Shown: positions 3-23,258, counted from the stretch's first letter. The stretch is DNA of 64,000 nucleotides from an uncultured Candidatus Saccharibacteria bacterium (GCA_964450605.1 CAYVEK010000001.1:8430-72429), one strand, 5' to 3'. The notes: generated by a model not told the origin, from the sequence alone. Made by a program: numbers and translations.

Positions 3-299
3 AAGGTAAGACTAGTAACAGATCTAGTTAAGGGTAAGCCTGTTCAAAAAGCGCTTACAACTTTGGAATTTACTCCAAAGCGAGCTGTAACAGCTGTTAA
101 AAAGCTTATTGAAAGTGCTATCGCTAACGCTACAAATGCAGGTATGGCAAAAGATTCTCTAAAGATTAAAAACATCACAGTAGATGAAGGTTTTACTCTG
201 AAACGAATCATGCCTCGAGCACGTGGTTCAGCGAGCCGAATTAATAAAAGAACATCACATATTCATGTGACATTAGACATAATCCAGGATAATAAATAG
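3..299 (+). CDS. rplV: 50S ribosomal protein L22, 5'-partial (runs off the window start)
   Basis: Frame-3 translation from base 3 ([43 protein letters not shown]...) matches the L22 family; gene order L22-S3-L16. Confidence 0.85.
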
Positions 300-309
300 A
301 TAACGAGAT

Positions 310-963
310 ATGACAAAAATAGTTCACCCATATTCACATAGACTTGGTATCATCAAAGATTGGAAATCTCGATGGTTTTCTTCTGATGCAGAGTTTCGAA
401 AAAACTTTAAAGGCGATATTATGATGCGAGAGTGGATTGATAAAAACCTAAAAGGTCAATTTATCGGTCTTACAGAGATCGAGCGAACAGCTAAAGTTAT
501 AAAGGTTATCATTCATACATCACGTCCTGGAATTGTGATCGGTAAAAATGGTGAAGGCTCAACAAAGATCCGAACATCTCTTGAAAAGATTTTGATTAAA
601 GCTGGAGATAAAAAACCTAATCTACAGGTTGAGATCGTAGAGATCAAAAACCCAGAGGCAAGTGCTTCAGTTGTAAGTCAAATGATCGCTGAGGGTATAG
701 AGAAGCGATTACCATATCGACGTGTTCTTAAACAGATCGTTGAGAAGGTTATGGCTGTAAAAGATGTTAAAGGAGTACGAATCTACCTAGGAGGTCGACT
801 TGCTGGTGCTGATATGGCACGAAGTGAGGAGATGAAACGAGGTCGAGTTCCTCTACAAACATTCCGAGCAGACATCGACTACGCTCGAAACAAAGCCCGA
901 ATGCCATATGGAGACATTGGTATTAAGGTTTGGATTTATAAAGGAGAGGTTTTCTCAAAATAA
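310..963 (+). CDS. rpsC: 30S ribosomal protein S3
   Basis: 217 aa; KH and S3 C-terminal domain motifs; position between L22 and L16. Confidence 0.95.
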   Translation: MTKIVHPYSHRLGIIKDWKSRWFSSDAEFRKNFKGDIMMREWIDKNLKGQFIGLTEIERTAKVIKVIIHTSRPGIVIGKNGEGSTKIRTSLEKILIKAGDKKPNLQVEIVEIKNPEASASVVSQMIAEGIEKRLPYRRVLKQIVEKVMAVKDVKGVRIYLGGRLAGADMARSEEMKRGRVPLQTFRADIDYARNKARMPYGDIGIKVWIYKGEVFSK

Positions 964-978
964 AATAATAGTAAACAT

Positions 979-1401
979 ATGTTATTTCCAAAAAAAGTAA
1001 AACATCGAAAATGGCAAGTGACTCGACGCAATGCTAAAGTGCTTGTTAAAAGAGTTGAGACACGAGGTACAACTGTTGCAAACGGTGCGTACGGCATGAT
1101 GGCTACAACTCAAGCTCGAATAACTTCAAACCAGATTGAATCTGCTCGAAAAGTTATCGCACGAAGTGTAGGTAAAACAGGACGAATCTGGACACGAATC
1201 TTCCCAGACCGACCTTATACTAAGAAAGCTGCTGAAGTACCCATGGGTTCAGGAAAAGGAGAGCCAGAGGGATTCTGCTTCGAGACTTTTGCTGGACGAG
1301 TATTGTTTGAAGTTGATGGAGTAACAGAAGATGTTGCAAAAGAAGCTTTCCGAAAAGCTGGGTCAAAATTACCAGTAAAAGTTAGAATGGTAACACGATA
1401 A
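979..1401 (+). CDS. rplP: 50S ribosomal protein L16
   Basis: 140 aa, MLFPKKVKHRKWQ... typical L16 N-terminus; operon position. Confidence 0.95.
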   Translation: MLFPKKVKHRKWQVTRRNAKVLVKRVETRGTTVANGAYGMMATTQARITSNQIESARKVIARSVGKTGRIWTRIFPDRPYTKKAAEVPMGSGKGEPEGFCFETFAGRVLFEVDGVTEDVAKEAFRKAGSKLPVKVRMVTR

Positions 1402-1410
1402 TAAACACGT

Positions 1411-1653
1411 ATGACACAAACAAAATCTAAAAAAAGAATATTAGAGGGAACAGTGGTATCAAACAAGATGAAAGATACTATTACTGTTAAAGTTGACCGA
1501 TTCGTTAAATTGCCAAAATACCAGAAATATGTTACTGTTTCTAAGAAGTACAAGGCACACGATGCTGGAAATACAAAGAATATCGGAGACAAAGTAACTA
1601 TTATCGAATGCGCTCCGATATCAAAAGATAAGAAGTTTACTTTGGTTAAATAA
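1411..1653 (+). CDS. rpsQ: 30S ribosomal protein S17
   Basis: 80 aa OB-fold protein (GTVVSNKMKDTITVKV...HDAGN...GDKVTIIECAPISKDK) typical of S17; starts 9 nt after the rplP stop with no L29 gene between. Confidence 0.9.
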   Translation: MTQTKSKKRILEGTVVSNKMKDTITVKVDRFVKLPKYQKYVTVSKKYKAHDAGNTKNIGDKVTIIECAPISKDKKFTLVK

Positions 1654-1662
1654 TACAAATAT

Positions 1663-2034
1663 ATGATACAGCCACAATCAATAGTTTCAATAGCAGATAA
1701 CTCAGGTGCCAAAATTGGTAAAGTTTTCAAAGTACTTGGAGCGGCTGCAAAGCGATATGCTCGAATAGGAGATACTGTTATTTTGTCAGTACAAAAAGCT
1801 GAGCCACGAAAAGGAACAAAAAAGAAAGATGTTCATAAAGCCGTTGTTGTTCGACAGCGACAGGCGTTCCGACGAAAAGATGGTTCATACATTCGTTTTG
1901 ATGAAAATGCAGTAGTTCTGATTGATAAAAACAAAGGAGAGCCAATAGCAGGTCGTATCTTCGGTCCTATTCCACGAGAAATCGCAGAAAAAGGTTATCA
2001 AACTATCGCGTCTAAGGCGCAAGAGATTGTATAG
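1663..2034 (+). CDS. rplN: 50S ribosomal protein L14
   Basis: 123 aa, MIQPQSIVSIADNSGAK... classic L14. Confidence 0.95.
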   Translation: MIQPQSIVSIADNSGAKIGKVFKVLGAAAKRYARIGDTVILSVQKAEPRKGTKKKDVHKAVVVRQRQAFRRKDGSYIRFDENAVVLIDKNKGEPIAGRIFGPIPREIAEKGYQTIASKAQEIV

Positions 2035-2077
2035 TCAAAAACATTATATATAACAAGAAACGTATAAGTCTAAACAT

Positions 2078-2290
2078 ATGATTAAAAAAGGACAAACAGT
2101 AAAGATACTATGCGGCGATGACAAAGGAAAGAAAGGAACTGTCATCAAAGTTTTTCCGTTGCAAGATAAAGTATTAGTAGAAGGTGTAAATATGAAAACT
2201 TCTCACAAGAAAGCTACTCAAGGCAAGAAAGGTGAGATCGTTCAAGTTGCTATGCCAATACATATATCAAACGTAGCAGCCGTTAAATAA
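2078..2290 (+). CDS. rplX: 50S ribosomal protein L24 (short form)
   Basis: 70 aa KOW-domain protein (KKGQTVKILCGDDKGKKGTVIKV) at the L14-L24-L5 position. Confidence 0.85.
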   Translation: MIKKGQTVKILCGDDKGKKGTVIKVFPLQDKVLVEGVNMKTSHKKATQGKKGEIVQVAMPIHISNVAAVK

Positions 2291-2306
2291 AGTTTAAAAA
2301 ATTTAT

Positions 2307-2855
2307 ATGACAAAAAATAAACACGTAACAGTAAAAGAAAAAGCAAAAACAGCCTTTGAAACACTTAAAGGTCAGTTTGGCTATAAAAATAAACTTCAAG
2401 CTCCACGAATCGAGAAGGTGGTTGTTTCTACAACAACAGGATCTATTAAAGATCTTAAAAAACGAGATTTGATGGGTGATCGAGTTTCTAAAATAACAGG
2501 CCAGAAACCAGTTGTTACAACAGCTAAAAAATCTATTGCTACATTTAAACTTCGAACAGGTGATGCATCTGGATATAAAGTTACTCTACGAGGAGACAAG
2601 ATGTGGGCGTTTCTTGAGAAAGTTGTTAACATCGCATTCCCACGAACAAAAGACTTCCGAGGTGTTACTGCTACAGGTATAGATAGTATGGGAAACTTCT
2701 CATTCGGTATTAAAGAAAACACTGTGTTCCCAGAAACATCAGATGAAAACATTCAAGATATCTTCGGTCTTGGTGCTACAGTTGTGACTACAAGTAAAAA
2801 TAAAGAAGAAACAAAGGCCTTCCTGGAAATGCTTGGCTTCTTATTTAAAAAATAA
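2307..2855 (+). CDS. rplE: 50S ribosomal protein L5
   Basis: 182 aa; L5 family similarity; operon position. Confidence 0.95.
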   Translation: MTKNKHVTVKEKAKTAFETLKGQFGYKNKLQAPRIEKVVVSTTTGSIKDLKKRDLMGDRVSKITGQKPVVTTAKKSIATFKLRTGDASGYKVTLRGDKMWAFLEKVVNIAFPRTKDFRGVTATGIDSMGNFSFGIKENTVFPETSDENIQDIFGLGATVVTTSKNKEETKAFLEMLGFLFKK

Positions 2856-2885
2856 AATTTACTATACATAACGTAATATAAAAAT

Positions 2886-3071
2886 ATGGCAAAAAAATCA
2901 GTAATTGAAAGATCAAAAAAGAAACCAAAGTTTAAGAGTCGAGTAGTACGAAGATGCTTCCGATGCGGTCGAAAGCGAGGGTACATGAGAGACTTCGATA
3001 TGTGCCGAATCTGTTTCCGAGAGGCTGCAAACGAAGGATTGATCCCAGGAATTAAGAAATCATCATGGTAG
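2886..3071 (+). CDS. rpsN: 30S ribosomal protein S14 type Z (zinc-binding)
   Basis: 61 aa with CxxC...CxxC ([21 protein letters not shown]); typical S14-Z. Confidence 0.9.
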
Positions 3072-3103
3072 TAAAAACGTATTAAAGATTTTAAGAAAAA
3101 TAT

Positions 3104-3496
3104 ATGAATCACGGAATATCACAAATCATAAATAACCTAAAAAACGCTAATAGTGCAGGAAAAAGTACTACTGTGTTTGGTTTCTCAAAATTTAGAAAAG
3201 CTATTCTAGATAAACTTTCTGCACTAGGTTTTGTTGGAGGTGTTAAAGTTATCGGAACTGGTCCTATCCAGCACATCGAAGTTGAACTTTCATACGATGA
3301 GGCAGGAAAACCAAAGATACAAGGAGTACAACAAGTTTCAAAGTTTTCTCGACGAGCATATGGTTCATACCGAGAAGCTCATCAAGTAAAAAATGGATAT
3401 GGTGCATTACTTGTAAGTACACCTAAAGGAGTGCTCTCTGACAGTGAGGTTCGAAAAGAAAAGGTCGGAGGAGAGTTTCTGTTTAAAATCTGGTAA
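3104..3496 (+). CDS. rpsH: 30S ribosomal protein S8
   Basis: 130 aa; S8 family similarity; operon position. Confidence 0.9.
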   Translation: MNHGISQIINNLKNANSAGKSTTVFGFSKFRKAILDKLSALGFVGGVKVIGTGPIQHIEVELSYDEAGKPKIQGVQQVSKFSRRAYGSYREAHQVKNGYGALLVSTPKGVLSDSEVRKEKVGGEFLFKIW

Positions 3497-3527
3497 TACT
3501 ACAAAATAATCATTTAACGTCAAATAT

Positions 3528-4061
3528 ATGTCAAGAATTGGAAAACAAATCATCGAAATACCAGCAGGAACAACTGTTACAGTAAACAACAATGTTGTTA
3601 CAGTAAAAGGTCCTAAAGGAGAACTAACACGACAGTTTCGACCTATCGTAGATATTGTTGTTGATGGAAATACTGTTTCTTTTGTAAAGAAACAAGAGTC
3701 ATCTTTCGGACGATCTCTATGGGGAACATACGCTGCTCATGTTAAAAACATGATCAAAGGTGTAAATGAAGCATATGTAATAAAACTTATCCTAGAAGGA
3801 GTTGGATACAAAGGTGATGTTCAAGGAACAACACTAAACCTCGCACTTGGTTTTTCTCACCCTGTTAAAGTTCAGATTCCAGCTGGTCTTACTGTAACAG
3901 CAGAGAAAGGAACATTTACATTTACAAGTATCGACAAAGAATTGGTTGGAAGTTTTGCTGCCAAGATTCGAGCCTTGAAGAAGCCTGAACCGTATAAAGG
4001 AAAAGGATTCCGATATGATGGCGAAGTTATTGCTCGAAAACAAGGTAAAAAAGCTGCCTAA
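3528..4061 (+). CDS. rplF: 50S ribosomal protein L6
   Basis: 177 aa, MSRIGKQIIEIPAGTTVTV... classic L6. Confidence 0.95.
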   Translation: MSRIGKQIIEIPAGTTVTVNNNVVTVKGPKGELTRQFRPIVDIVVDGNTVSFVKKQESSFGRSLWGTYAAHVKNMIKGVNEAYVIKLILEGVGYKGDVQGTTLNLALGFSHPVKVQIPAGLTVTAEKGTFTFTSIDKELVGSFAAKIRALKKPEPYKGKGFRYDGEVIARKQGKKAA

Positions 4062-4098
4062 TCATTAAATCAAAATAAACGTAATTAATTAAAATTTT

Positions 4099-4440
4099 AT
4101 GAAACGAGTATATTTATCAAACAGAGACAGAATCAAAGCACGAATCCGTGCAAAGGTTAAGGGAACTGCAGAGCGCCCACGTCTAACTGTGTTCAAATCA
4201 AATAAATTTATCTACGCTCAGCTTATCGATGATGTTGCTGGAGTAACTCTCGCACAAGCAAATTCAGCTGAAATGAAAGATAAAAAGATGGATGCAGCTG
4301 TGAAAGTGGGAAAAGCTCTTGCTGAAGCTGCAAAAGCAAAGAAAATAACAAAGGCTGTATTTGACCGAAACGGTTATATCTTTACCGGTCGAGTACTAGC
4401 ACTAGCTGAAGCTGCTCGAGAGGGTGGACTAGAATTTTAA
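4099..4440 (+). CDS. rplR: 50S ribosomal protein L18
   Basis: 113 aa; L18 similarity ([21 protein letters not shown]). Confidence 0.9.
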
Positions 4441-4476
4441 TCAATTACGTAGTATATATAGATAATCAAAACAATT

Positions 4477-5094
4477 ATGACAGATCTACAAGAAAACATA
4501 AATACAACTGAGACTCCAGCTCCAGAAGCTACACAGTCTTCTCCTGCACCAGTTGCACATGGAAATCGACGACCGCCTTTCCGAAAAAATCCACGACAAG
4601 ATCGAGGTGACAAACGAGGTCCTAAACGAGAACCTAAAGCTAAACCAGAGTTTGACCAGAAAATCGTTGATATTCGACGAGTGACTCGAGTTACTTCAGG
4701 AGGACGAAAGTTTAGTTTTGCGGTTGCAGTTATTGCTGGTGACCGAAAAGGACGAGTTGGTTTTGGAACAGGAAAAGGGCTGGACACAGCAGTTGCAGTA
4801 GACAAAGCATATCGAAAAGCAAAGAAAAATCTAATACAGATTCCTCTTACAAAAAATGGATTGATTCCTCACGATGTATTTGCAAAATACGCAAGTGCAC
4901 GAGTTGAAATCCGACCAGCACCCGGAAAGGGAGTTGCTGCAGGATCAGCAGTTCGAGATGTGCTAGAGCTAGCAGGTGTTAAAGATGTTATCGGAAAGAT
5001 TCGATCAGGTTCAAAGAACAAGATGAACAACGCCCGAGCAGCTATATCAGCTCTAAGTATGCTTAATACAAAAAAGAAAGTAAAACATTTATAA
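4477..5094 (+). CDS. rpsE: 30S ribosomal protein S5 with ~60-aa P/R/K-rich N-terminal extension
   Basis: 205 aa; S5 core (RVTRVTSGGRKFSFAVAVIAGDRKGRVGFGTGKG); low-complexity N-terminus. Confidence 0.9.
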   Translation: MTDLQENINTTETPAPEATQSSPAPVAHGNRRPPFRKNPRQDRGDKRGPKREPKAKPEFDQKIVDIRRVTRVTSGGRKFSFAVAVIAGDRKGRVGFGTGKGLDTAVAVDKAYRKAKKNLIQIPLTKNGLIPHDVFAKYASARVEIRPAPGKGVAAGSAVRDVLELAGVKDVIGKIRSGSKNKMNNARAAISALSMLNTKKKVKHL

Positions 5095-5101
5095 AAAACA
5101 T

Positions 5102-5545
5102 ATGCAGCTACATACACTTAAAAGAAATACAAAAAGAAAAGTAAAACAGCAAGTTGGACGTGGTTCAAAACGAGGTAAAACTTCTGGACGAGGTCAAAAA
5201 GGACAGACATCACGTGCTGGACGAAAACTTCGACCTGAGATCCGAGAGGTGATCAAGAAGATTCCTAAACTACGAGGACAGAATAAAAACTCTTTCAGTG
5301 AGAGCCGAGTTCGACCTATAGTTTTGAATCTATCTGATCTTGCTTCAGTTCCTGCTGGAACAGTTCTTACACCAAAAACTTTTGTTGATCTAAAACTTGT
5401 TTCTCTTGTAAAAGGTAAAGTTCCTGCCATTAAAGTTCTGGGAGATGGAGAGATTACACAAGCATTAACAATTAAGAAGGTTGCAGTTTCTGCATCTGCA
5501 ACAGCAAAAATAGAAAAAGCAGGCGGAAAAGTATATGCTATCTAA
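5102..5545 (+). CDS. rplO: 50S ribosomal protein L15
   Basis: 147 aa Gly/Arg-rich N-terminus (GRGSKRGKTSGRGQKGQ) typical of L15; follows S5 directly with no L30 gene. Confidence 0.9.
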   Translation: MQLHTLKRNTKRKVKQQVGRGSKRGKTSGRGQKGQTSRAGRKLRPEIREVIKKIPKLRGQNKNSFSESRVRPIVLNLSDLASVPAGTVLTPKTFVDLKLVSLVKGKVPAIKVLGDGEITQALTIKKVAVSASATAKIEKAGGKVYAI

Positions 5546-6812
5546 ACTAAAATTCATATTTACTGATAAAACACTAAGAAACCGAGTACTCGCGTGTCTT
5601 GGTGTTTTGGCTATTTTTAGAGCTTTGTCAGCTATTCCTGTTCCAGGAGTAAATACAGACGCTCTTCAAGCTGTTCTTGGAGAAAATAGTTTCTTTCAAG
5701 TTCTTAACCTGTTTTCAGGAGGAGGACTATCTAGTTTATCTATCTTGATGCTTGGAGTTGGTCCATACATCACTGCGTCTATCATCATACAGTTGCTGAC
5801 TATGGTGTTTCCAAAAATGAAACAGCTACAGCAAGAAGAGGGTACAGCTGGACGACAGAAGATTTCACAGTACAGTAGACTTCTAACTATACCTCTTGCA
5901 CTTGTTCAAACTTTTGCACTTGTTTCTCTTATCTCTCGACAATCACCACAGGTATTTGGAGAGCTTACATCTTTTGCATTCCTTCAGATCGCTATTATCG
6001 TAGTTGCATCATCAGTACTTCTTATGTGGCTTGGAGAAAGACTTTCTGAGTATGGTTTAGGAAACGGTATCTCTCTGATTATTGCGGGAGGTATTATCGC
6101 AAGTATGCCACAGAGTATCTCACGAATCTGGGCTACATTTGATGCCACACAGGCTCCTGGATTTATAGCAATACTTGCTGTTGCTATTGCTGCTATCTGG
6201 CTTATTGTGTTCGTTACAGAAGCTGAGCGACCTATAGAGGTTACATATGCTCGACAAGCTCGATCATTGTCTACACAAGGTGCGGGTGGATCAAGTAAGT
6301 CATATATGCCTATTCGTTTGAATCAGGCCGGAGTGATGCCTATCATCTTCGCTCTTACTCTTTTGATGTTCCCAACATTTATAGCAAACTTTATATCAGG
6401 TTCTTCAGTTGAGATCTTGAGAAATATCGGTTTGTTTGTAACTCGATGGATGCAAAATGGATGGGTATACGGAATACTATACTTTGTACTTGTATTTGTA
6501 TTTACGTACTTCTACACAGCTATCACTTTTGATCCAAAACAGATTGCAGAAAACCTACAGAAGCAGGGTGCGTTTGTTCCGGGTATACGACCAGGTGATC
6601 AGACAGTTGATTATATGTCACGAATCGTAACAAAGACTACATTTATCGGAGCTTTGTTTCTAGGAATAGTCGCGATACTTCCATCAGTTATCCAAGGTCT
6701 TACAGGTATAAATAGTATCAAGATCGGTGGAACAGGTATATTGATCGTTGTTTCAGTTGTTATCGAAGTTCTAAAGAAAATTGATGCACAGGTTGGTATG
6801 CGACAGTACTAA
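5535..6812 (+). CDS. secY: preprotein translocase subunit SecY
   Basis: 425 aa polytopic membrane protein with SecY similarity; operon position. Confidence 0.95.
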   Translation: MLSKLKFIFTDKTLRNRVLACLGVLAIFRALSAIPVPGVNTDALQAVLGENSFFQVLNLFSGGGLSSLSILMLGVGPYITASIIIQLLTMVFPKMKQLQQEEGTAGRQKISQYSRLLTIPLALVQTFALVSLISRQSPQVFGELTSFAFLQIAIIVVASSVLLMWLGERLSEYGLGNGISLIIAGGIIASMPQSISRIWATFDATQAPGFIAILAVAIAAIWLIVFVTEAERPIEVTYARQARSLSTQGAGGSSKSYMPIRLNQAGVMPIIFALTLLMFPTFIANFISGSSVEILRNIGLFVTRWMQNGWVYGILYFVLVFVFTYFYTAITFDPKQIAENLQKQGAFVPGIRPGDQTVDYMSRIVTKTTFIGALFLGIVAILPSVIQGLTGINSIKIGGTGILIVVSVVIEVLKKIDAQVGMRQY

Positions 6813-6830
6813 TATCTGATGTGATATACT

Positions 6831-7445
6831 GTGGGTATGACAAAACTTCCACAAACGATTATCTTTATGGGTCGATCTGGCTCAGGTAAAGGTACGCAGG
6901 TAGAGCTTCTTCGGGCACATCTCGAACAGCAAGGTTATAGTGATTTTATTGATCTACAAACAGGTTCTTTGTTCCGAGAGTTCATAACCGGAGATACGCT
7001 TACAGCTCATCTCGCCAAAGAGATATACACAGAAGGTGGTAAGGATTATGATTTTTTGGCCACATATTTGATTATTGATTTTTTCAATAAAAAATATTCA
7101 GGCAAAGAGAGCTTGTTTGTTGATGGTAATCCTCGTTCAAAACTAGAAGCGGAACTATTTACAGGTATTCTCAATTTTTATAAAAGATTTGATGAATCTC
7201 AGTTCAGTAAACCGATAGTTATTTATGTCGATGTAAGCCATGATTGGGCTATAGATAAGTTAAAGAAGAGGGGTAGAGCAGATGATTCAATGATCGAAAA
7301 TATGGAACGCAAGATGTCATGGTTTGATACTGAAACTATCCCTGCAGTAGAATATCTCAAACAAGATCCTCGATATAAGTTTATTCATGTAAACGGTGAG
7401 CAGAGTATAGAAGAAGTTCATCAAGAAATAGTAAGTAGATTATAA
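6831..7445 (+). CDS. adk: adenylate kinase (divergent)
   Basis: P-loop GRSGSGKGTQ, NMP-binding TGSLFRE, DGNPRS and RGRADDS motifs; secY-adk-map order; start may be the ATG at 6837. Confidence 0.8.
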   Translation: MGMTKLPQTIIFMGRSGSGKGTQVELLRAHLEQQGYSDFIDLQTGSLFREFITGDTLTAHLAKEIYTEGGKDYDFLATYLIIDFFNKKYSGKESLFVDGNPRSKLEAELFTGILNFYKRFDESQFSKPIVIYVDVSHDWAIDKLKKRGRADDSMIENMERKMSWFDTETIPAVEYLKQDPRYKFIHVNGEQSIEEVHQEIVSRL

Positions 7446-7446
7446 A

Positions 7447-8223
7447 ATGATTCAGATATATTCAAAAGACGAAATAGAAGTTTTGCGAGAAGGGGGAGAA
7501 CTCCTTTTTCGTATTTTGAGTGCATTGAAAGAAAAAACTGTTGACGGGGTTGATACTTTTACACTGAATCAGTACGCGCTAGAGTTATGTGAAAAACATG
7601 ACGCTAAACCTGCTTTTCTAAATTATAAACCTCATGGAGCGCCACGTCCTTTTCCTGGGGCGTTGTGCTTGTCGATAAATGATGAGGTTGTTCACGGTAT
7701 TCCAAATGAAAAAAATAGAGTTTTGAAAAACAGCGACGTTGTGGTTCTTGATATGGGTATTTTGTATAAAGGTATGTATACCGACAGTGCTATCACAACA
7801 GTGATAGGGGGTGATGATAAAAATCCGGTCGGTGCAAAGATGGTAGAGGTTGCTGAAAAAGCCCTATATGCTGCGATCGATGCAGTAAAACCGGGTATAC
7901 GAACAGGAACTATTGGACACATCATAGAACAAACTGTAAAAACAAACAGTAAATTTTCAATACCACATGAGCTTGGGGGACATGGTATAGGTAAAACTAT
8001 TCATGAAGATCCATTTATGCCGAACTTTGGTAAAAAAGGAGAGGGTCCGATACTGCGAGAGAGTATGGTTCTGGCTATAGAACCGATACTTGCAGAAAAA
8101 AAACCACACCTAAAAGTTTTAAAAGATGGATACACATATGTAACTGTTGATAAAGGATTAAGTGTTCATGTTGAACATACTATTGTGGTAACAAAAGACG
8201 GGGCAGAGATTTTGACGAGATAA
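7447..8223 (+). CDS. map: methionine aminopeptidase type I
   Basis: 258 aa; MAP pita-bread fold motifs (DVVVLDMG, HGIGKTIHEDP, VLAIEP). Confidence 0.9.
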   Translation: MIQIYSKDEIEVLREGGELLFRILSALKEKTVDGVDTFTLNQYALELCEKHDAKPAFLNYKPHGAPRPFPGALCLSINDEVVHGIPNEKNRVLKNSDVVVLDMGILYKGMYTDSAITTVIGGDDKNPVGAKMVEVAEKALYAAIDAVKPGIRTGTIGHIIEQTVKTNSKFSIPHELGGHGIGKTIHEDPFMPNFGKKGEGPILRESMVLAIEPILAEKKPHLKVLKDGYTYVTVDKGLSVHVEHTIVVTKDGAEILTR

Positions 8224-8243
8224 TATTGTGTTATAATATACGC

Positions 8244-11200
8244 ATGACATTTTTTAAACGTATTTGTGTATTTTTACTTATAGTAGGTTTTGTATTTGGA
8301 ATAATTCCTATTCAAAAATATAAAGGTTTCGAGCCAACTAAGGTTCATGCTGCAGATCCATGGTGGAATAACGGTTGGACAAAAAGAATGAAGATTACTT
8401 TTGCTAACGGATCACGAGGAGCTTTAACTGATTTTCCTGTTCAAGTCGCTCTAAACTCTGGAAGAGTTACGTATGGAAACTTTAAAGCAGGTGGGGCAGA
8501 TGTTAGATTTGTTGACGCTGACGGTTCGACTTTGTTGAACTATGAAATAGAGAAGTGGGATACATCAGGAACATCTACATTGTGGGTTAAAATACCGCAG
8601 ATAGATAGTGCGTCAGATACTGATTATATATACATGTATTATGGAAACACTGGAGCATCTGCTGTTGCAACTACTACAGGTGTCTGGGATTCTAGTTATG
8701 TTACAGTGCAACACTGGGGTGAGGATCCGACAGGTGCAGCTCCGCAGTTTCAAGACAGTACTGTGAACAATAAAGACGGTACAGCGTCATCTTCTCAGGT
8801 TGGAGGTCCTGTAGTCGCCACAACACTCTCTGGTAGATTTGGAAGTGGTCTTGATTTTAATGGAAATACTCATTTTGTTGATGAAGGTGAGACACAGCTC
8901 GCACCTCTTCCAAATGGTTCAGCCGAGTTCTGGTTTGATATAGATACTATGGCAGCGTCTTCTACGAACAGGTATCTATTTTCTCGAGTAAAGTCTGGAG
9001 CAAACGATGGGGAGCTTAGAGTTTATGTTGATACTACTTCAGGATCTGTGAACCGAGATAAGATTGTCTTTCAGATAGAGTGTACGGTTCCTTCTTCTAT
9101 AAGCCCTATAGCAACATCAACAGCCTCAACAACTATCGATAGCTGGTATCATGTAACGGCAGTTTGGGATGATGACACTGCGGGTGCTATGAAGTTATAT
9201 GTAAACGGTACTCAGGTTGGATATTCAAATACAACAACTTGTGGATCAGAAGCTACTGCAGTTGTTACTATGGCAGGTAAAAACAATGCCTTAAACAACG
9301 GTTATTTTGATGGCCAGATGGATGAACTTCGAGTTTCTTCTGTTGCTCGTTCTGCTGACTGGATAAACGCTTCTTATGTTTCGGGTGTCGATGGTTTGAA
9401 TACATATGCAGGTGTTGAAAATCAACCTGATGCAGTTCCTCCTGTTATATCTTCTATCGCATCATCAACGACTGATACTACGGCAACTATCACCTGGACA
9501 ACAGACGAGTCTGCTACATCTACTGTTAACTACGGATTGACAACAAGTTATGGTTCAGCATCTTCTTCAAACACTGGAACAACTAACCATTCAATACAAC
9601 TAACCGGCCTCACGCAAAGTACGACGTATAATTTTCAAATATCTGTTTGGGATACATCTAGTAACTTGGCTACATCTTCAAACTTAACGTTTAGAACAGC
9701 TGCGGCAACTCCTCCTGGACAACCTACAAGTGTAACAGTGTATCCATATGATAATAGGGCACATTTACGATGGACGGCTTCGACGGGTACTGTGACAGAT
9801 TATAAGATAGAGTACAAACTTTCTTCGGAGCCTACTACTTGGACATTGTTTAATGATGGAGTCTCAACTGCAACCACAACTATGGTTACAGGTCTTACAA
9901 ACAATGTTGCATATGATTTTAGAATAACAGGTACAAATGGAGGTTCGGATGGAACAGTTTCGGCAACGGTTAGTACGACACCTAGTTATTTGATGACTTT
10001 TGTAAATCCAACCATAGCTAACGGAAACTCGACATCATCTACAACCATAACAGCCTACGCTTCAACCACATCAGGACTTACTCCTTCTTATTTTACCTTT
10101 AGACTTGAGACGTCAGGAGGTTCTCTTGTATCAAACTCTACAACAACTACACGGTGGGGAGATTTCTCTTTGAATCACCTAACAGAGTTATCACATAAGG
10201 TAGATATTGCTATAACGAGTGATTTGTCTGGACATGTGTACGTTCCGACAACAAATACTTTGTTTACGGTTCATAATAATCAAAATGTTCTAACTGAACT
10301 TAACAGAGATGGAACACTAGCAAGTAGTTCAAGACCAACTATTACATGTAGTGCCTGCGGTGATATAGAGGATATTACATTGGTTTCAAGTGTTGCCTCT
10401 ACAACTGCTGGAGGATATGATCATACATTTATGATTTCTACTGAGGATGTTGATACAAATAACTTGCAGATATTCAGAATAGTTGTCCACTCAAAAGGTG
10501 CGGTTACGGTAAATAGAAATGATTATTTTTCAACCGGTATCGCCGCCTCATCTACAAATGATGGACTTGAAGGTATCGCGTATAACGCAAACACGGATAC
10601 ATATTTTGTGTCTGTAGAAGGTCAGGCCACACAAACGACCCGTCCTCGTCTGTATGAAGTAACCCTTGGCTCGGGTCACAGTGCAACATCTGTTCCTGTT
10701 TGTACAAACATCAACTTCCGTGATTATTTAACAGAGGATAATACTGTTGCTTACGGAAACACTGCATACGCAGATATATCTGGTCTTGATTTTTCAACCT
10801 CTACAAATCGTCTGTATGTGATATCTCATAAAGCTGACAAGATATTGGAGGTGGATGTTGCAAATCGAAATAGTTGTTCTGTCTTAAATCAATTACCCAT
10901 AGCAATGCGTGCTGACAGTGGTCCAAATCATGATTTTCAAATGCCTGAAGGTGTTGCGTGGGATGCTACAGGAGATTATATGTATGTTTCAGCCGAACTA
11001 AGTTACTGGTCTATTTGGAGAACAAACACATATACAGTTCAAAAAACATTTACAGGTTTGACTCCTGGCACATATAACTTGTACACAAGTGTAACTGATG
11101 CTTTTGGAAATACTTCTACAACTACAGCTAGATCATTTACGGTCTTTACTCCTGACACAACTGCCCCTGTTATATCAAATATCGCATCTTCTACAACTGA

Positions 11201-12179
11201 TACAACTGCAACTGTTACCTGGGACACAAATGAAAATGCATCATCATCAGTTCGATATGGAACATCACCTGGTGTATATACAGGCATATCATCATCTACT
11301 GCAGATTTAAGTCACTCAGCAACTCTTACAGGATTATCAAGAGATACAACATATTACTTCTCTGTATTGGCACGTGATCCTTCTGGTAACGTTTCGACTT
11401 CAACAGAGCGATCATTTAAAACACAAGTAAGCGGTTCTCCGGTTGTTACTGTCCAAGCAGCTTCATCTATCTCGACAAGTAGTGCTACGCTCAATGCGAC
11501 GTTAGTTGATGATGGAAATGCTTCAACTACATCATGGGGATTTGAATATGGTCCAACAACCTCGTACGGAACAGTGGTTTCTGTTGGAGGGTTTATACCA
11601 AACAGTACACCGTATTACATATCTATTACAGGCCTGAATCCGGCAACGACTTATTATTTTAGGGGAGTTGTAACAACTACTTTCGGAACAGCTTCTTCAA
11701 GTGGAACTAGCTTTGTGACAGCCTCAATCACACCCGACACCCCACCCGTCATCGGCCCCGTCGGAGGCTCATCAGGTGGAGGTGGTGGAGCAGGAGCTCA
11801 GCAACCACAACAACAGAACAATAACCAACAGCCTCAACCTCAAAACAACAAACCAGAACCCAACACCCCAGCAGAAGCCCTCCAAAACCTCGGTGCCCAA
11901 GGTGTAGTCATCAAAAACATACAAGCACCAGGTAAGAAGAACCTAGACGTCAAAAACATACAAAAGATACTAAACGCAGACAAAGCAACCCAGATAGCCA
12001 AGAAAGGCCCAGGATCTCCAGGTAAAGAAACAGACCTCTATGGAGCAGCCACAAAAGCTGCAGTAGGTAAATTCCAGATAAAACACGGAATACTCAAGTC
12101 TCCAAAGGACAAAGGCTACGGTATCGTAGGTCCTGCAACCCAAAAGAAGATGAATGAGTTGGTCAAGGGGAAGAAGTAG
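8244..12179 (+). CDS. giant surface protein: signal/anchor, DUF2341-like, LamG-like (Laminin_G_3), multiple fibronectin-III-like repeats, Q/N/P-rich linker, C-terminal peptidoglycan-binding-like domain
   Basis: Uninterrupted 1311-aa ORF (the track starts at TTG 8226; ATG 8244 preferred). DUF2341-like block (WTKRMKITF...DFPVQV...DVRFVDADGSTLLNYEIEKWD...LWVKIP...YIYMYYGN). LamG-like end (GYFDGQMDELRVSSVARSADWINASY). Two FN3-like repeats (ISSIASSTTDTTATITWTT / ISNIASSTTDTTATVTWDT). C-terminus resembles PG_binding_1 (LYGAATKAAVGKFQIKHGIL...GIVGPATQKKM). Confidence 0.7.
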   Translation: MTFFKRICVFLLIVGFVFGIIPIQKYKGFEPTKVHAADPWWNNGWTKRMKITFANGSRGALTDFPVQVALNSGRVTYGNFKAGGADVRFVDADGSTLLNYEIEKWDTSGTSTLWVKIPQIDSASDTDYIYMYYGNTGASAVATTTGVWDSSYVTVQHWGEDPTGAAPQFQDSTVNNKDGTASSSQVGGPVVATTLSGRFGSGLDFNGNTHFVDEGETQLAPLPNGSAEFWFDIDTMAASSTNRYLFSRVKSGANDGELRVYVDTTSGSVNRDKIVFQIECTVPSSISPIATSTASTTIDSWYHVTAVWDDDTAGAMKLYVNGTQVGYSNTTTCGSEATAVVTMAGKNNALNNGYFDGQMDELRVSSVARSADWINASYVSGVDGLNTYAGVENQPDAVPPVISSIASSTTDTTATITWTTDESATSTVNYGLTTSYGSASSSNTGTTNHSIQLTGLTQSTTYNFQISVWDTSSNLATSSNLTFRTAAATPPGQPTSVTVYPYDNRAHLRWTASTGTVTDYKIEYKLSSEPTTWTLFNDGVSTATTTMVTGLTNNVAYDFRITGTNGGSDGTVSATVSTTPSYLMTFVNPTIANGNSTSSTTITAYASTTSGLTPSYFTFRLETSGGSLVSNSTTTTRWGDFSLNHLTELSHKVDIAITSDLSGHVYVPTTNTLFTVHNNQNVLTELNRDGTLASSSRPTITCSACGDIEDITLVSSVASTTAGGYDHTFMISTEDVDTNNLQIFRIVVHSKGAVTVNRNDYFSTGIAASSTNDGLEGIAYNANTDTYFVSVEGQATQTTRPRLYEVTLGSGHSATSVPVCTNINFRDYLTEDNTVAYGNTAYADISGLDFSTSTNRLYVISHKADKILEVDVANRNSCSVLNQLPIAMRADSGPNHDFQMPEGVAWDATGDYMYVSAELSYWSIWRTNTYTVQKTFTGLTPGTYNLYTSVTDAFGNTSTTTARSFTVFTPDTTAPVISNIASSTTDTTATVTWDTNENASSSVRYGTSPGVYTGISSSTADLSHSATLTGLSRDTTYYFSVLARDPSGNVSTSTERSFKTQVSGSPVVTVQAASSISTSSATLNATLVDDGNASTTSWGFEYGPTTSYGTVVSVGGFIPNSTPYYISITGLNPATTYYFRGVVTTTFGTASSSGTSFVTASITPDTPPVIGPVGGSSGGGGGAGAQQPQQQNNNQQPQPQNNKPEPNTPAEALQNLGAQGVVIKNIQAPGKKNLDVKNIQKILNADKATQIAKKGPGSPGKETDLYGAATKAAVGKFQIKHGILKSPKDKGYGIVGPATQKKMNELVKGKK

Positions 12180-12205
12180 AACAAGACCTCAGATAAATCA
12201 AGCTA

Positions 12206-12239
12206 ATACCACATGTGACAGTGTGGTATTATTGTTTGT
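12206..12239 (+). terminator. intrinsic terminator after the giant surface-protein gene
   Basis: ATACCACA-tgtgacag-TGTGGTAT, perfect 8-bp stem, followed by TATTGTTTGT. Confidence 0.5.
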
Positions 12240-13955
12240 ATGAAATATCTAAACATACTACTGATTAGTCTAATAGTTATACTTGGGGTATTTTTTCTGT
12301 TTACGAAAAAAGTAGAAGGCCCTGTCATAAGTGATAATGAATCATTACTAATGACTAGTAGTGTGCAGATGGTGGTAGCTTCAAGTAGTTCTATTGTATC
12401 TGGTATTACATTTACAAATGATACATATAAGTTATTCCTAACTCAGGAAAGTGAAGATAATACATATGCAGATTTTACATATACTAAACAAGGTGTGATA
12501 GATACAGGTCCGTTCGCGGGGTATACAAAACTTTTAGTTACTAGAACATATGATGGACCTTCGCTTGATGGTTTGGGAGTTTTTGCGTTTATAACAAAAG
12601 ATTTTAAAACTTTTTTGGTCACAAAGCAGTATTCGTTCGTATCTGATGAATATCAAAAGTTTAATAAGGATACTGTTTTAGGTGTTGTTGATTTCAAAAT
12701 CAGCCATCCCGAGAAAATAGAATACAATGGACTTACTTTCTCTAGAAATGAGTTTTTTCAAAAAAATGATTATACTCGTATAAGTAAAGGTCAAAAACTA
12801 TTTGATATAGATAGGCTTACAGCATATGCGGAAGATATTGATTATGATGATAAGATTATCAGTTCCTATATAAAAGGAACATCACGAATATGGCTTGAAG
12901 ATGCATATGGTGTTGTATTTGCGTACAGTCCTTATGTAAGAGAGGCTGAAGGTGTTGTTTTTTCAAATAACGACTTTATTGATTCTAAGAAAGTATATAC
13001 AGTTTATGGAGACGCTATTCCAGAAATGTGTGGTGCTTTCTATTCAAATAAGATTTTACAAAACTTGAAAACAGAAGATCTTGTAAAAGTAACAGCTACT
13101 AAAACTGGTGTAGAGATGTATGCTCTGAAAGATAAAAATCATCCACTACTCAAGGCACAATATCAAAGAAAGATAGAGAATCAGAAAATGTATTTTACTG
13201 AAGTAAATCCTGAATATAAAAAAATTCCAACATACAATGAATACGTATCTCAATATCCAATACTTATATACAAAGACATCTGGAACAGGTGGAATGCAAT
13301 AGGTGAATTTCAATATAAAGTTGATGGAGGATGTGGTAAGCCAGTGATCTATCTTTATCCGCCAAAGCCTACAGATATCTCTATTTCATTTGTAAAACCA
13401 GTACGGCTAACTGCTGATATTCCATCATATGACGGAGGTTGGAATGTTAGAGCTGATAGTTTTGGAAATCTAACCGATTTGCAACCAGATAAAACTGATT
13501 GTAATAAGATAAATTCAAAAAAACTTGGTTTGGAATACGCAAAAGATGCATGTCTTTCAGGTGTGTATCCATATATCTACTGGGCAGGTGATGTAAAGGC
13601 AAAATATCCTAAGGCACAAGAAGGTTTTATTGTTACACGAGCAGATCTTAAAAAAACGCTTGAAGAAAAATTGGCATATATAGGTTTATCTGACAAAGAA
13701 ATAAAGGACATGGTTGAGTACTGGTATCCATATATGTATGAAAAAGGTTTTTCATACTATAGATTAACCTTCTTTCAGAATAAAGAAATGAACTCATTTG
13801 TGCCCATGAATGTATATCCACGTCCAGATAGTGTGGTACGTGTATTTCTAGATTGGGAAGGTTTAGATGAAGAAATCTTCATAAAACCTCAGTTGCTACA
13901 AAAGATAGACCGAAAGGGTTTTACACTTGTTGAGTGGGGTGGTTTGAAAAAGTAA
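12240..13955 (+). CDS. hypothetical membrane-anchored/secreted protein (571 aa)
   Basis: Long ORF with N-terminal hydrophobic segment (LNILLISLIVILGVFFLF); no recognisable family. Confidence 0.5.
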   Translation: MKYLNILLISLIVILGVFFLFTKKVEGPVISDNESLLMTSSVQMVVASSSSIVSGITFTNDTYKLFLTQESEDNTYADFTYTKQGVIDTGPFAGYTKLLVTRTYDGPSLDGLGVFAFITKDFKTFLVTKQYSFVSDEYQKFNKDTVLGVVDFKISHPEKIEYNGLTFSRNEFFQKNDYTRISKGQKLFDIDRLTAYAEDIDYDDKIISSYIKGTSRIWLEDAYGVVFAYSPYVREAEGVVFSNNDFIDSKKVYTVYGDAIPEMCGAFYSNKILQNLKTEDLVKVTATKTGVEMYALKDKNHPLLKAQYQRKIENQKMYFTEVNPEYKKIPTYNEYVSQYPILIYKDIWNRWNAIGEFQYKVDGGCGKPVIYLYPPKPTDISISFVKPVRLTADIPSYDGGWNVRADSFGNLTDLQPDKTDCNKINSKKLGLEYAKDACLSGVYPYIYWAGDVKAKYPKAQEGFIVTRADLKKTLEEKLAYIGLSDKEIKDMVEYWYPYMYEKGFSYYRLTFFQNKEMNSFVPMNVYPRPDSVVRVFLDWEGLDEEIFIKPQLLQKIDRKGFTLVEWGGLKK

Positions 13956-15435: not shown

Positions 15436-15559
15436 TGTTTAGAGAATAGCACAGATTATACAAATTACGATACTTTTTTGAGTGTTTGGGAAGTGGAAAG
15501 TAAAGGTGTTTGGGTGGATTATTATAGTGAGGGTTATGTAGCCCTTTGCTCTATGCTTA

Positions 15560-15777
15560 GAATCCGCCAACTCTACTTCACTTTCAAGTGGTGGTGGACG
15601 TTTCGGACAAAAAGAGTGCCGGTAAAGCCTCTTCAATCTGAAGCTGTCCACTCCACCTCTCAAGATGAGGGATACGTTCAACTGGAGCTTTTTTAAGGCT
15701 TCTCGGCCCGCCGGAGAAAGGCTCAAAACCTGGTCAAACCCATGTTCAGAGCCTCCTCCGGAGGGTTTTTCTTTTTG
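15560..15777 (+). ncRNA. candidate structured non-coding RNA (identity unresolved) ending in a terminator-like hairpin
   Basis: Plus-strand segment lying between two minus-strand genes; long-range helix GGUGGUGGAC (15590-15599) / GUCCACUCCACC (15646-15657); small hairpins; hairpin CCGGAGAAAGGCUC...GAGCCUCCUCCGG then UUUUUCUUUUU (15711-15777); locally elevated GC. Confidence 0.3.
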
Positions 15778-15821
15778 CAGAGACTTGGTCCTTACAGGGC
15801 CAGTACACTAGGCTTTTTGTT

Positions 15822-15905
15822 TGGTGCCGGAGAAGAGACTTGAACTCTTACGGGTTGCCCCGCGCGATTTTGAGTCGCGTGCGTCTACCATTCCGCCACT
15901 CCGGC
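15822..15905 (-). tRNA. tRNA-Leu (anticodon CAA), class II with long variable arm, CCA encoded
   Basis: Reverse complement reads GCCGGAGTGGCGGAATGGTAGACGCACGCGACTCAAAATCGCGCGGGGCAACCCGTAAGAGTTCAAGTCTCTTCTCCGGCACCA; anticodon loop CUCAAAA; T-arm AAGAG-TTCAAGT-CTCTT; 7-bp acceptor stem. Confidence 0.85.
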
Positions 15906-17130: not shown

Positions 17131-17156
17131 GTGAATCAACAGGGTATAAAGAATAT

Positions 17157-18548: not shown

Positions 18549-18595
18549 AAAAGTGTGTTGGGCAATTACATGTAAGATTTGTTATTATATAACAT

Positions 18596-19591: not shown

Positions 19592-19613
19592 ACCGTGATA
19601 TACTTTTACACAT

Positions 19614-23168: not shown

Positions 23169-23258
23169 GCTAGACTTCAAGTCTTGTCCACTTCGGTCTG
23201 GCCCTTCGGCGATTTATCGCCAAACGCTCAGGAAGATACAGCGTTCGTAAACTTCCGG

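Follow-up and report, generated by a model that had tools for sequence, protein, structure and literature searches.

In the 64,000-nucleotide stretch of DNA analysed here (the window), a gene for a predicted surface protein of 1311 aa begins a few nucleotides behind map, the last gene of a ribosomal-protein operon. This raises the question of whether the giant gene interrupts the operon and is expressed through it, or is a gene of its own in a region that follows the operon. We consider the latter likely, and suggest that the product is a Sec-exported, non-covalently wall-attached surface protein whose gene lies in a variable interval with its own promoter and terminator. The host is an ultra-small bacterium of the Paceibacteria (Parcubacteria, CPR).

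The ribosomal-protein operon and its end

The tail of an S10/spc ribosomal-protein operon occupies positions 63..8223 on the plus strand, as identified by Pfam, by tblastn with E. coli proteins and by the gene calls of L090, a Logan contig that is near-identical to the window and has the same arrangement. The order is L22, S3, L16, S17, L14, L24, L5, S14, S8, L6, L18, S5, L15, SecY (5535-6812), Adk (6837-7445) and Map (7447-8223, stop codon 8221-8223), which bears out the canonical order up to map given in the preliminary description. The order L22 through L15-secY-adk-map is common to the window and the spc/alpha operon of model bacteria such as Bacillus subtilis, except that the window has no L29 gene between L16 and S17 and no L30 between S5 and L15. 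The model operon continues from map with infA-rpmJ-rpsM-rpsK-rpsD-rpoA-rplQ, whereas the window and 62 Paceibacteria loci do not. None of these seven genes gave a significant tblastn match anywhere in the 64-kb window, the best match having E=0.013 at 24539-24640, inside an ORF at 24503-25690. As positive control, E. coli L14, S8, L5, S5, L20 and IF3 found their window orthologs at E values of 5e-15 to 5e-44, and the earlier statement that infA through rplQ are absent from the window therefore stands.

Relatives were sampled as 80 SecY-anchored loci of GTDB species representatives, 62 of which contain map. InfA, L36, S13, S11, S4, RpoA and L17 gave no match at E<=1e-4 in the 80 loci (best E=0.099), and in none of the 62 was infA-rplQ found downstream of map in up to 8.6 kb examined, whatever gene comes next. 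The first gene after map is a non-ribosomal gene on the same strand in 51 of 59 loci, and the gap to a same-strand next gene is 100 nt or less in 40 of the 59. Those identified include a VirD4/TraG-like ATPase, PurD and NDK. It is thus normal in this clade for map to be followed closely by a non-ribosomal gene. Genes are also inserted between secY and adk (29/61 relatives) and between adk and map (11/61), and synteny with the nearest relatives breaks off exactly at map.

Since the operon ends at map throughout the clade, the break is not caused by the giant gene. The preliminary description had the giant gene truncating the operon; comparison across relatives confirms that infA-rplQ are missing after map, but this is shared by all 62 loci and independent of the giant gene. 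With map as the clade's normal operon end, the giant gene stands after the operon, not inside it. The infA-rplQ genes would be located elsewhere in the genomes of this class, and the giant gene sits in a variable interval past the natural operon end.

The giant gene and its product

An ORF at 8226-12179 on the plus strand was confirmed in the window. Its start is likely ATG 8244 and not TTG 8226, giving a gene at 8244..12179 (+) that encodes 1311 aa and is supported by the ORF, Pfam and ortholog gene calls. ATG 8244 is the called start in contig L090, and in the 96%-identical strain L081 the ortholog (P0001) is called from the equivalent position. The 1311-aa ORF reported behind map is therefore a real gene, and the tight same-strand junction is confirmed as well, with a gap of 20 nt (8224-8243) instead of the 21 nt given earlier. 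The junction is identical in the independent assemblies L081 and L090, which rules out an assembly chimera. The mature protein has a mass of about 135 kDa, a pI of 4.9 and a Ser+Thr content of 26%.

The features described below are all encoded on the plus strand. The protein begins with a putative Sec signal peptide (aa 1-36, 8244..8351), read from the translation, with basic residues K5/R6, a 17-residue hydrophobic core (I7-I23) and the residues VHA followed by AD. An AADAWWN motif after the hydrophobic stretch is kept in aligned orthologs. Next come DUF2341 (PF10102, aa 84-147, 8493..8684; 54.3 bits, Pfam cut-off 23.4), found in 16/16 orthologs, and Laminin_G_3 (PF13385, a concanavalin-like lectin domain, aa 224-374, 8913..9365; 63.7 bits, cut-off 27.6), found in 11/16. 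They are followed by an FN3-like repeat at about aa 395-485 and by fn3 (aa 493-578, 9720..9977; 58.6 bits in two stretches, with PDB FN3 matches). The middle of the protein is a YjiK-like "SdiA-regulated" beta-propeller (PF06977, aa 648-918, 10185..10997; 74.3 bits, cut-off 21), matching profile positions 12-241 of 249; this domain and fn3 are present in all 16 orthologs. Behind it lie Pur_ac_phosph_N, which is FN3-like (aa 981-1060, 11184..11423; 56.5 bits in two stretches), a second FN3-like repeat at about aa 1066-1160, a Gly/Gln/Asn/Pro-rich linker at about aa 1170-1215 and a C-terminal PG_binding_1-like domain (PF01471, aa 1235-1303, 11946..12152; E=2.8e-4). With 21.4 bits, the last is just under the Pfam cut-off of 23, but it is recognised in 13/16 orthologs (best E=2.1e-18), and alignment of the C-termini shows the motif to be conserved. 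Of the domains named in the preliminary description, DUF2341, Laminin_G_3 and fn3 are hence above cut-off and PG_binding_1 is sub-threshold in this protein. The propeller was absent from that domain list and was found by Pfam.

The propeller resembles E. coli YjiK in both sequence and predicted fold. A phmmer comparison of this region with PDB 3qqz gave E=1.2e-5. An AlphaFold2 model of aa 585-965 has a pLDDT of 84.8 and a pTM of 0.86, and its top Foldseek match is 3qqz (E=2.4e-13, TM (target) 0.79, 23% identity); the modelled fold is superposable on YjiK. The 3qqz chain is the C-terminal domain of YjiK, about 250 residues, whereas in the giant protein of 1311 aa the propeller forms one module among several. 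Residues Cys702-x-x-Cys705, Cys820 and Cys878 are conserved in the ortholog alignment.

We infer secretion, wall anchoring and adhesion of the protein. A cleavable signal peptide would be followed by a DUF2341 beta-sandwich with a LamG lectin-like module, two FN3 domains, the propeller, FN3-like spacers, the low-complexity linker and PG_binding_1. Most likely, the C-terminal domain holds the protein on peptidoglycan and the FN3 stalk carries the propeller and, at the tip, DUF2341/LamG away from the cell, where they would bind a ligand or host in the manner of an adhesin. An adhesin of the Gram-positive type, anchored by sortase (LPXTG) or SLH domains, was rejected, as the C-terminus, which ends in ...MNELVKGKK, has no LPXTG sorting signal or hydrophobic tail and the protein has no Pfam match to SLH.

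The protein belongs to the known large DUF2341/LamG/FN3 surface proteins of Patescibacteria, which occur in archaea as well. Large Patescibacteria proteins with DUF2341 have been reported, and a role in adhesion or host interaction was inferred for them (PMC11809585). Like these giants, the protein exceeds 1000 aa and carries DUF2341 and Laminin_G_3 at the N-terminus, followed by FN3/Ig repeats; the giants have a signal peptide, to which the putative one of this protein would correspond. Homologs number in the hundreds and come from Parcubacteria, Asgard and Thermoplasmatota archaea, Methylomirabilis and actinomycetes. Unlike the other giants, the subfamily found in the window adds the mid-protein propeller and the C-terminal PG_binding_1; PF06977 is present in only 16 among the 120 homologs listed. 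A tie between DUF2341 and MotA/TolQ/ExbB systems had been pointed out, but Pfam lists MotA_ExbB (PF01618) for none of the 120 best homologs, and the neighbouring genes, both in the window and at loci L084, L086 and L088, include no MotA/ExbB gene. With 0/120 listed homologs, this link appears irrelevant here.

Promoter-like element and terminator-like hairpin

The 20-nt gap contains TGTTATAAT, a consensus extended -10 element (TG-T-TATAAT, 8229..8237, +) located 6 nt upstream of ATG 8244, which predicts a leaderless mRNA. A consensus scan also found a -35-like hexamer, TTGACG, in the last codons of map (8212..8217, +); the spacer is 14 nt to TATAAT, which is sub-optimal, and 16 nt to an overlapping TAATAT. 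Some 19 further genes of the window begin behind the same extended -10 layout; TGNTANNNT with a gene-opening ATG 5-10 nt on was counted 24 times in the window, whereas control offsets gave counts of 2-9. In the 80 relatives (1.36 Mb), distances of 6 nt and 7 nt from -10 to ATG form a sharp peak, with 69 and 55 cases respectively, where the background is about 7. The giant gene thus has the modal "leaderless" spacing of the clade, a layout that goes without a Shine-Dalgarno sequence.

Leaderless mRNAs with a -10 element at a fixed distance from the start codon are well documented in Actinobacteria (Mycobacterium) and in Deinococcus. The layout here is similar in having a -10-like hexamer 6-7 nt before the ATG and no Shine-Dalgarno sequence, and differs in being an extended -10 (TGn) and in belonging to a low-GC CPR lineage. 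In the literature searched, no paper described such a layout for Patescibacteria.

Orthologs of the giant gene carry comparable elements. TGATATAAT lies 8 nt before the start in L085 and TGATAAAAT 7 nt before it in L086; in L084, where the gene is not next to map, TGATAAAAT is again present, 8 nt before the start. An extended -10 thus precedes all three orthologs checked, irrespective of their neighbours. This element is most likely the giant gene's own promoter, and we infer that transcription would begin with the A of the ATG or an adjacent nucleotide, most likely giving a leaderless mRNA.

The junction of map with the giant gene shows no terminator, and RNA folding of 8195-8260 gave no stable structure there (z=+0.37). 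The earlier claim on the gap is thus correct as to the missing terminator, but a promoter-like extended -10 is present, as judged by its motif. Without a terminator in a 20-nt gap, the giant gene may be co-transcribed with the ribosomal operon, and its expression may be raised by read-through from map, although this would not be the designed mode. Behind the giant stop codon, an 11-bp perfect hairpin followed by TTGTTTGT (12204..12231, +; RNA fold) resembles a terminator, with -18.3 kcal/mol, z=-3.4 and 1 of 200 shuffles as good. This hairpin, which overlaps the -10 element of the next gene, would end the giant gene's transcription unit.

Genomic context and alternative explanations

Adjacency of map and the giant gene was found in three species-level lineages, namely the window species, L085 (Map 71% identical) and L086/L087 (SecY 77%), between which the giant protein is 56-64% identical. 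Among the 80 GTDB species representatives, the giant gene follows map in 0 of the 62 loci that contain map. Other orthologs, 53-58% identical, occupy unrelated contexts, behind NUDIX in L082/L083, behind an 868-aa protein with no Pfam match in L084 and behind dsbB in L088. The adjacency is therefore limited to a narrow subclade only. Its occurrence in three lineages indicates that it is not a recent event, and selection rather than inheritance may account for it.

The giant gene might still be functionally part of the ribosomal operon and be transcribed mainly by read-through from map, giving a very high, growth-coupled level of an interaction or adhesin protein. The close same-strand junction without a hairpin or terminator, its identity in two assemblies and its persistence in L085 and L086/L087 despite the divergence of the protein are in line with this, as is the fact that many relatives pack genes 0-20 nt behind map with no detectable -10, so that read-through past map probably occurs in the clade. 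We nevertheless regard this explanation as unlikely. The extended -10 stands at the modal leaderless spacing and also before orthologs away from map, the operon ends at map regardless of the next gene, orthologs are found in unrelated contexts and the nearest GTDB relatives (SecY 67-69%) carry other genes behind map. Further, codon adaptation to the ribosomal-protein set is low, at 0.554 compared with 0.72 for SecY, and few genes in the window have a codon usage less like that of ribosomal-protein genes. The preliminary interpretation is borne out in part, but its view of an adhesin embedded in, and expressed via, the ribosomal operon is unlikely on these results. With the operon ending at map in all relatives and a promoter-like element of its own, the giant gene appears to be a case of fairly ordinary gene placement. 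A possible, if rather doubtful, alternative is that the interval from the giant gene to tRNA-Leu (approximately 8.2-15.9 kb) is a strain-variable islet at a recombination hot spot, in which the position behind map has no functional meaning. Synteny stops at map and resumes at a conserved pilin-like/beta-CASP/SLOG block (16717-20219 in the window), leaving a variable interval of 8.5 kb; in 26 loci the block lies 1-9 kb after map. A tRNA-Leu(CAA) gene (15822..15905, -) is inside the interval. Homology with strain L081, which is 96% identical, extends no further than the giant stop codon, and in L081 a paralog of the giant protein replaces the 571-aa gene that follows in the window. The operon tail also varies in its cargo among relatives: between secY and adk there are secreted PKD/Ig proteins and a binding protein of an ABC transporter, and in L001 map is followed by a PG_binding_1 protein. 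However, neither an integrase nor a transposase was identified, no direct repeats were noticed in an analysis not aimed at repeats, the giant gene differs little in GC content (0.40-0.41) from the window as a whole (mean about 0.38), and the adjacency to map persists in three species-level lineages.

As for the protein, it could be a secreted, wall-tethered enzyme and not an adhesin, with a catalytic propeller (phytase-, esterase- or lactonase-like) and with LamG/FN3 as substrate-binding accessories; we find this improbable. There is weak Phytase-like (PF13449) similarity in the giant protein (E=1.6e-4) and in 13/16 orthologs (best E=2.7e-6), lower-ranking Foldseek matches include luciferin-regenerating enzyme and glutaminyl cyclase, and Cys, Asp, Glu and His columns are invariant in the propeller. 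Yet the enzyme matches are to generic propellers (TM 0.36-0.46) and no catalytic-family HMM is above threshold. YjiK, by far the best match, is not known to have enzymatic activity, and the YjiK-like propeller family has no known function. A lectin-like tip, an FN3 stalk and a wall anchor would moreover be typical of binding proteins, in keeping with the adhesin-like surface protein that we favour.

The second protein of 571 aa described behind the giant gene is encoded by a real ORF (12240..13955, +) with an N-terminal hydrophobic membrane helix. Its pairing with the giant gene is not conserved. The protein has no Pfam match, and its AF2 model (pLDDT 80.3) has no PDB fold match. A motif scan found an extended -10-like element, TG-G-TATTAT (12224..12232, +), 7 nt before ATG 12240, and the protein family is represented under two source names, both Patescibacteria lineages.

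The end of the ribosomal-protein operon

The genome belongs to the Paceibacteria/Parcubacteria (CPR, Patescibacteria). The best GTDB representatives, labelled as Parcubacteria, Paceibacteria or Nomurabacteria MAGs, share 67-69% identity with it in SecY. On the plus strand the genes are ordered as L22, S3, L16, S17, L14, L24, L5, S14, S8, L6, L18, S5, L15, SecY, Adk and Map, followed by a giant ORF and a 571-aa ORF. ORF calls together with Pfam and tblastn searches confirmed this arrangement, as given in the preliminary description. The genes for L16 (979-1401) and S17 (1411-1653) are only 9 nt apart, with no L29 gene between them. The L30 gene is absent between S5 and L15 (4477-5545); loss of L30 is a known CPR trait.

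The stop codon of map lies at 8221-8223 (+). A tblastn search with the E. coli InfA, L36, S13, S11, S4, RpoA and L17 gave no significant match in the 64-kb window, in agreement with the absence of infA-rplQ noted earlier. The best match (E=0.013) was at 24539-24640, within the ORF 24503-25690. The search was sensitive enough, because the control queries L14, S8, L5, S5, L20 and IF3 recovered their orthologs in the window with E values of 5e-15 to 5e-44.

The operon had been described as truncated after map by the giant gene. We compared it with 80 loci of GTDB species representatives that were anchored on SecY (43-69% identical) and extended by up to 10 kb in either direction. None of the 62 loci that contain map encodes InfA, L36, S13, S11, S4, RpoA or L17 at E<=1e-4, whatever follows map, and the strongest match to this set among all 80 loci had E=0.099. 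The operon therefore ends at map across the class Paceibacteria, and the giant gene sits past the normal operon end of the clade. Insertion of the giant gene as the cause of the infA-rplQ loss was rejected, since relatives without it also lack these genes after map. Exactly at map, the window ceases to be syntenic with its four nearest representatives. The ribosomal operon only looks broken: throughout the class it normally ends in this way, and an adhesin insertion is not the cause. No new mechanism follows from this finding, which does correct a tempting misreading.

The giant surface protein and its 571-aa neighbour

The long ORF after map is listed from TTG 8226. The most likely start is ATG 8244, because gene calls on both a strain with a 96% identical giant protein (L081) and a near-identical Logan contig (L090) use that ATG. 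This gives a protein of 1311 aa (8244-12179, +) and a gap to map of 20 nt; the gap is as tight as first reported, but one nucleotide shorter than the 21 nt stated. An assembly chimera at the junction was rejected, as L081 and L090 have the same junction. An exact-sequence look-up with the giant protein or SecY gave no match; L090 was reached through the 571-aa protein.

Pfam searches identified DUF2341 (aa 84-147, 54.3 bits), Laminin_G_3 (aa 224-374, 63.7 bits), fn3 (aa 493-578 and a second stretch, 58.6 bits), SdiA-regulated (aa 648-918, 74.3 bits) and the FN3-like Pur_ac_phosph_N (aa 981-1060, two stretches, 56.5 bits). PG_binding_1 (aa 1235-1303) scored 21.4 bits, below the cut-off of 23. 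The four domains originally proposed were thus essentially right, with PG_binding_1 marginal, and the largest domain, a propeller, had been missed. True orthologs of the giant protein exist at 53-96% identity. DUF2341, fn3 and SdiA-regulated are present in all 16 orthologs examined and PG_binding_1 in 13 of them (best E=2.1e-18); the C-terminal call is rescued by homology because of these 13 matches.

The propeller matches E. coli YjiK (PDB 3qqz) by sequence (E=1.2e-5). An AlphaFold2 model of aa 585-965 (pLDDT 84.8, pTM 0.86) had 3qqz as its top Foldseek match, with E=2.4e-13, a TM score of 0.79 and 23% identity. The N-terminus resembles a Sec signal peptide, with K5/R6, a hydrophobic stretch I7-I23 and a putative cleavage site VHA|AD, and orthologs keep AADAWWN just past the hydrophobic stretch. 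The mature form has a mass of about 135 kDa, a pI of 4.9 and a Ser+Thr content of 26%; a Gly/Gln/Asn/Pro linker lies upstream of the PG-binding domain. No LPXTG motif, SLH domain or MotA/ExbB domain was found in it. DUF2341 had been linked to MotA/TolQ/ExbB-type systems. This link did not hold here, as PF01618 (MotA/ExbB) is absent from the Pfam lists of all the 120 homologs listed.

Large DUF2341-containing proteins have already been noted in Patescibacteria and read as adhesion or host-interaction factors (PMC11809585). The giant gene is a new member of this known group of large CPR surface proteins with DUF2341, LamG and FN3. Within the group it falls in a defined subfamily with the order DUF2341-LamG-FN3-YjiK propeller-FN3-PG_binding_1, whose members may be the proteins by which uncultured ultra-small bacteria contact a host or substrate. 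In such a protein the C-terminal domain would hold the molecule on the peptidoglycan, and the FN3 modules would carry the propeller and the DUF2341/LamG tip outward, where they would serve in binding.

The 571-aa ORF (12240-13955, +) encodes a protein anchored in the membrane by an N-terminal helix, with no Pfam, NCBIfam or PDB sequence match. We found 44 homologs, one of them with a Pfam domain. Among the few with a source name, two are assigned to Patescibacteria lineages, and the weakest match is a Crocinitomicaceae (Bacteroidota) MAG. The family has invariant Cys264 and Cys365 and a GCGKPVIYLYP motif. The AF2 model is fairly confident (pLDDT 80.3, pTM 0.68), and Foldseek found no fold match to it in the PDB (best E=0.017, TM about 0.1). 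NCBIfam searches were uninformative for the giant protein, for the 571-aa protein and for their neighbours. A role as conserved partner of the giant gene was rejected, because L081 and four contigs with orthologs (L084, L085, L086 and L088) carry other genes downstream.

Expression signals

Shine-Dalgarno sequences are essentially lacking in the window genome. The 20-nt gap between map and the giant gene reads TATTG-TG-T-TATAAT-ATACGC, followed by ATG. It holds an extended -10 element on the plus strand (TG 8229-8230, TATAAT 8232-8237) 6 nt upstream of the ATG, and TTGACG lies at 8212-8217 (+) within map. The same element precedes three giant orthologs irrespective of context (TGATATAAT+8 in L085, TGATAAAAT+7 in L086 and TGATAAAAT+8 in L084). 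An 11-bp perfect hairpin followed by TTGTTTGT is found past the giant stop codon (12204-12231; -18.3 kcal/mol, z=-3.4). Judged from sequence, the giant gene has promoter-like and terminator-like signals of its own.

We counted cases of TGNTANNNT with an ATG 5-10 nt downstream that begins a reading frame of at least 60 codons, with six-nt windows further downstream as controls. This layout occurs 24 times in the window versus 2-9 times at the control windows, and about 19 of the 24 are gene starts, including those of the 571-aa gene, adk, gyrB and a 1065-aa protein. The 571-aa gene is preceded by its own TGGTATTAT+7 element, and the window has eight TGNTATAAT sites, four of them 6-10 nt upstream of a gene start. 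In the 80 loci (1.36 Mb) we measured the distance from TGNTANNNT to an ATG that begins a reading frame of at least 100 codons. There is a sharp preference for 6 nt (69 cases) and 7 nt (55 cases), with a background of about 7 cases. Such a peak would be expected with transcription starting at the A of the ATG, and from known promoter geometry it would imply widespread leaderless mRNAs in this class. A bolder reading, which we consider improbable, is that leaderless mRNAs driven by extended -10 elements are the dominant start of transcription units across the class. In the literature searched we found no paper that addresses leaderless transcription in Patescibacteria/CPR. The 6-7 nt signature matters for gene calling and expression predictions in CPR bacteria.

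An extended -10-like TGATATACT is also located 6 nt upstream of the adk ATG at 6837, in the short gap after secY (6819-6839), which points to internal promoters in the tail of the operon. For adk itself, the start listed at GTG 6831 is probably two codons too early; the call on L090 gives 202 aa.

The giant gene had been proposed to be an adhesin-like gene placed inside the ribosomal operon so as to be strongly expressed, and not separated from map by any signal. There is indeed no stable structure between map and the giant gene (z=+0.37), so read-through from map is possible, and could contribute to expression, yet is not needed. The promoter-like extended -10 element in the gap speaks against a lack of separation. 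The giant gene has one of the lowest values of codon adaptation to the ribosomal-protein genes of the window (0.554; SecY 0.72, GyrB 0.71), which argues weakly against expression at the ribosomal level. Strong expression through embedding is not the reading we favour. What the preliminary description observed is confirmed, and its interpretation is partly supported.

Variable genes in the tail of the operon

In the same species, map is adjacent to the giant gene in L081, with an identical junction, and in L090. Relatives closer than the GTDB representatives keep this adjacency: L085 (Map 71% and giant 64% identical, gap about 48 nt) and L086/L087 (SecY 77%, Map 70% and giant 56% identical, gap 52 nt), the latter with the order S8…SecY-Adk-Map-giant-transketolase. 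None of the 62 map-containing loci among the 80 representatives fetched has the giant gene after map. The adjacency is present only in close relatives and was therefore inherited within a narrow subclade. Orthologs at 53-58% identity that do not follow map are found after NUDIX (L082/L083) and dsbB (L088), and the ortholog in L084 is preceded by an 868-aa protein without a Pfam match.

The neighbours downstream of the giant gene differ every time. Between L081 and the window, DNA homology ends at the stop codon of the giant gene despite the 96% identical protein. Where the window (12180-13955) has the 571-aa gene, L081 (4508-6052) has a giant paralog (LamG-FN3-propeller), 52% identical over 269 aa covering FN3 and the start of the propeller. 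This difference is strain-level cassette variation of surface proteins.

At least 1 kb of sequence follows map in 59 loci; in 51 of them the first gene after map is on the same strand, and 40 of these 51 genes start within 100 nt of map. The gene varies by locus; those identified encode a ~910-980-aa VirD4/TraG-like ATPase, PurD or NDK. The ATPase (TrwB_AAD_bind, TraG-D_C) follows map in most relatives (L002:12930-15800, L003:12955-15828, L004:8443-11385 and many other loci), often with a small T4SS-pilin-like protein and a beta-CASP RNase after it. No VirD4-like gene was found anywhere in the 64-kb window. A pilin-like/beta-CASP/SLOG block is found at 16717-20219 in the window and 1-9 kb after map in 26 loci. 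The 8.5 kb between map and this block in the window hold the giant gene, the 571-aa gene, a 191-aa ORF, miaA, tRNA-Leu(CAA) and a DUF305 gene, and are lineage-specific cargo in a variable interval.

The tail upstream of map is porous as well. An ORF of at least 90 aa lies between secY and adk in 29 of 61 loci and between adk and map in 11 of 61. Among those between secY and adk are two PKD/He_PIG/Kre9 Ig-like proteins with a signal peptide, of 1000 aa (L031:11710-14712) and 507 aa (L029:11298-12821). In L013 an ~8-kb run of ORFs lies between secY and adk, and the first (L013:11473-12651) encodes a periplasmic binding protein. Directly after map, L001 encodes a 926-aa secreted protein with PG_binding_1 and InlB repeats (Flg_new_2; L001:6309-9089). 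Both the stretch that follows map and the secY/adk/map junctions are thus variable cargo sites, which differ even between strains with 96% identity.

One could go further and read the secY-adk-map tail in Paceibacteria as a preferred docking site for strain-variable surface and secreted genes, which would be expressed by read-through from the strongest constitutively expressed operon together with their own leaderless extended -10 promoters. The giant gene, the PG_binding_1/InlB-repeat protein in L001 and the PKD/Ig proteins in L029 and L031 speak for it; we nevertheless consider it improbable. If true, host-interaction proteins would combine a high, growth-coupled basal level with independent control. 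The variable cargo tail, which also takes up secreted proteins, and the leaderless signature may outrank the giant gene in interest.

Other features of the window were also recorded. A 385-bp, relatively GC-rich non-coding spacer (15436-15821) between miaA (-) and tRNA-Leu(CAA) (15822-15905, -) contains CCTCCGGAGG-type hairpins; Rfam matched nothing in it even at E<=1, the only match being the adjacent tRNA-Leu. A 1.2-kb stretch of elevated GC (about 0.44) at 22245-23425 has no Pfam or Rfam match and holds two antiparallel 200-aa ORFs (22527-23129, -, and 22566-23168, +) that overlap almost fully. A type IV pilus-like cluster (38580-42364) encodes a T2SSE ATPase (38580-39719), a T2SSF platform protein (39716-40762) and a 389-aa protein that carries a methylation motif at its N-terminus (40759-41928), and ends with a second pilin-like ORF (41900-42364). 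The cluster is 30 kb from the giant gene and without link to it. A second large secreted protein of 1065 aa is encoded at 52448-55645, with a putative signal peptide and no Pfam or NCBIfam match. Its gene is preceded by TGATATTAT, 6 nt and ATG, and over 418 aa the protein shares 31% identity with an ORF found downstream of map in L003.
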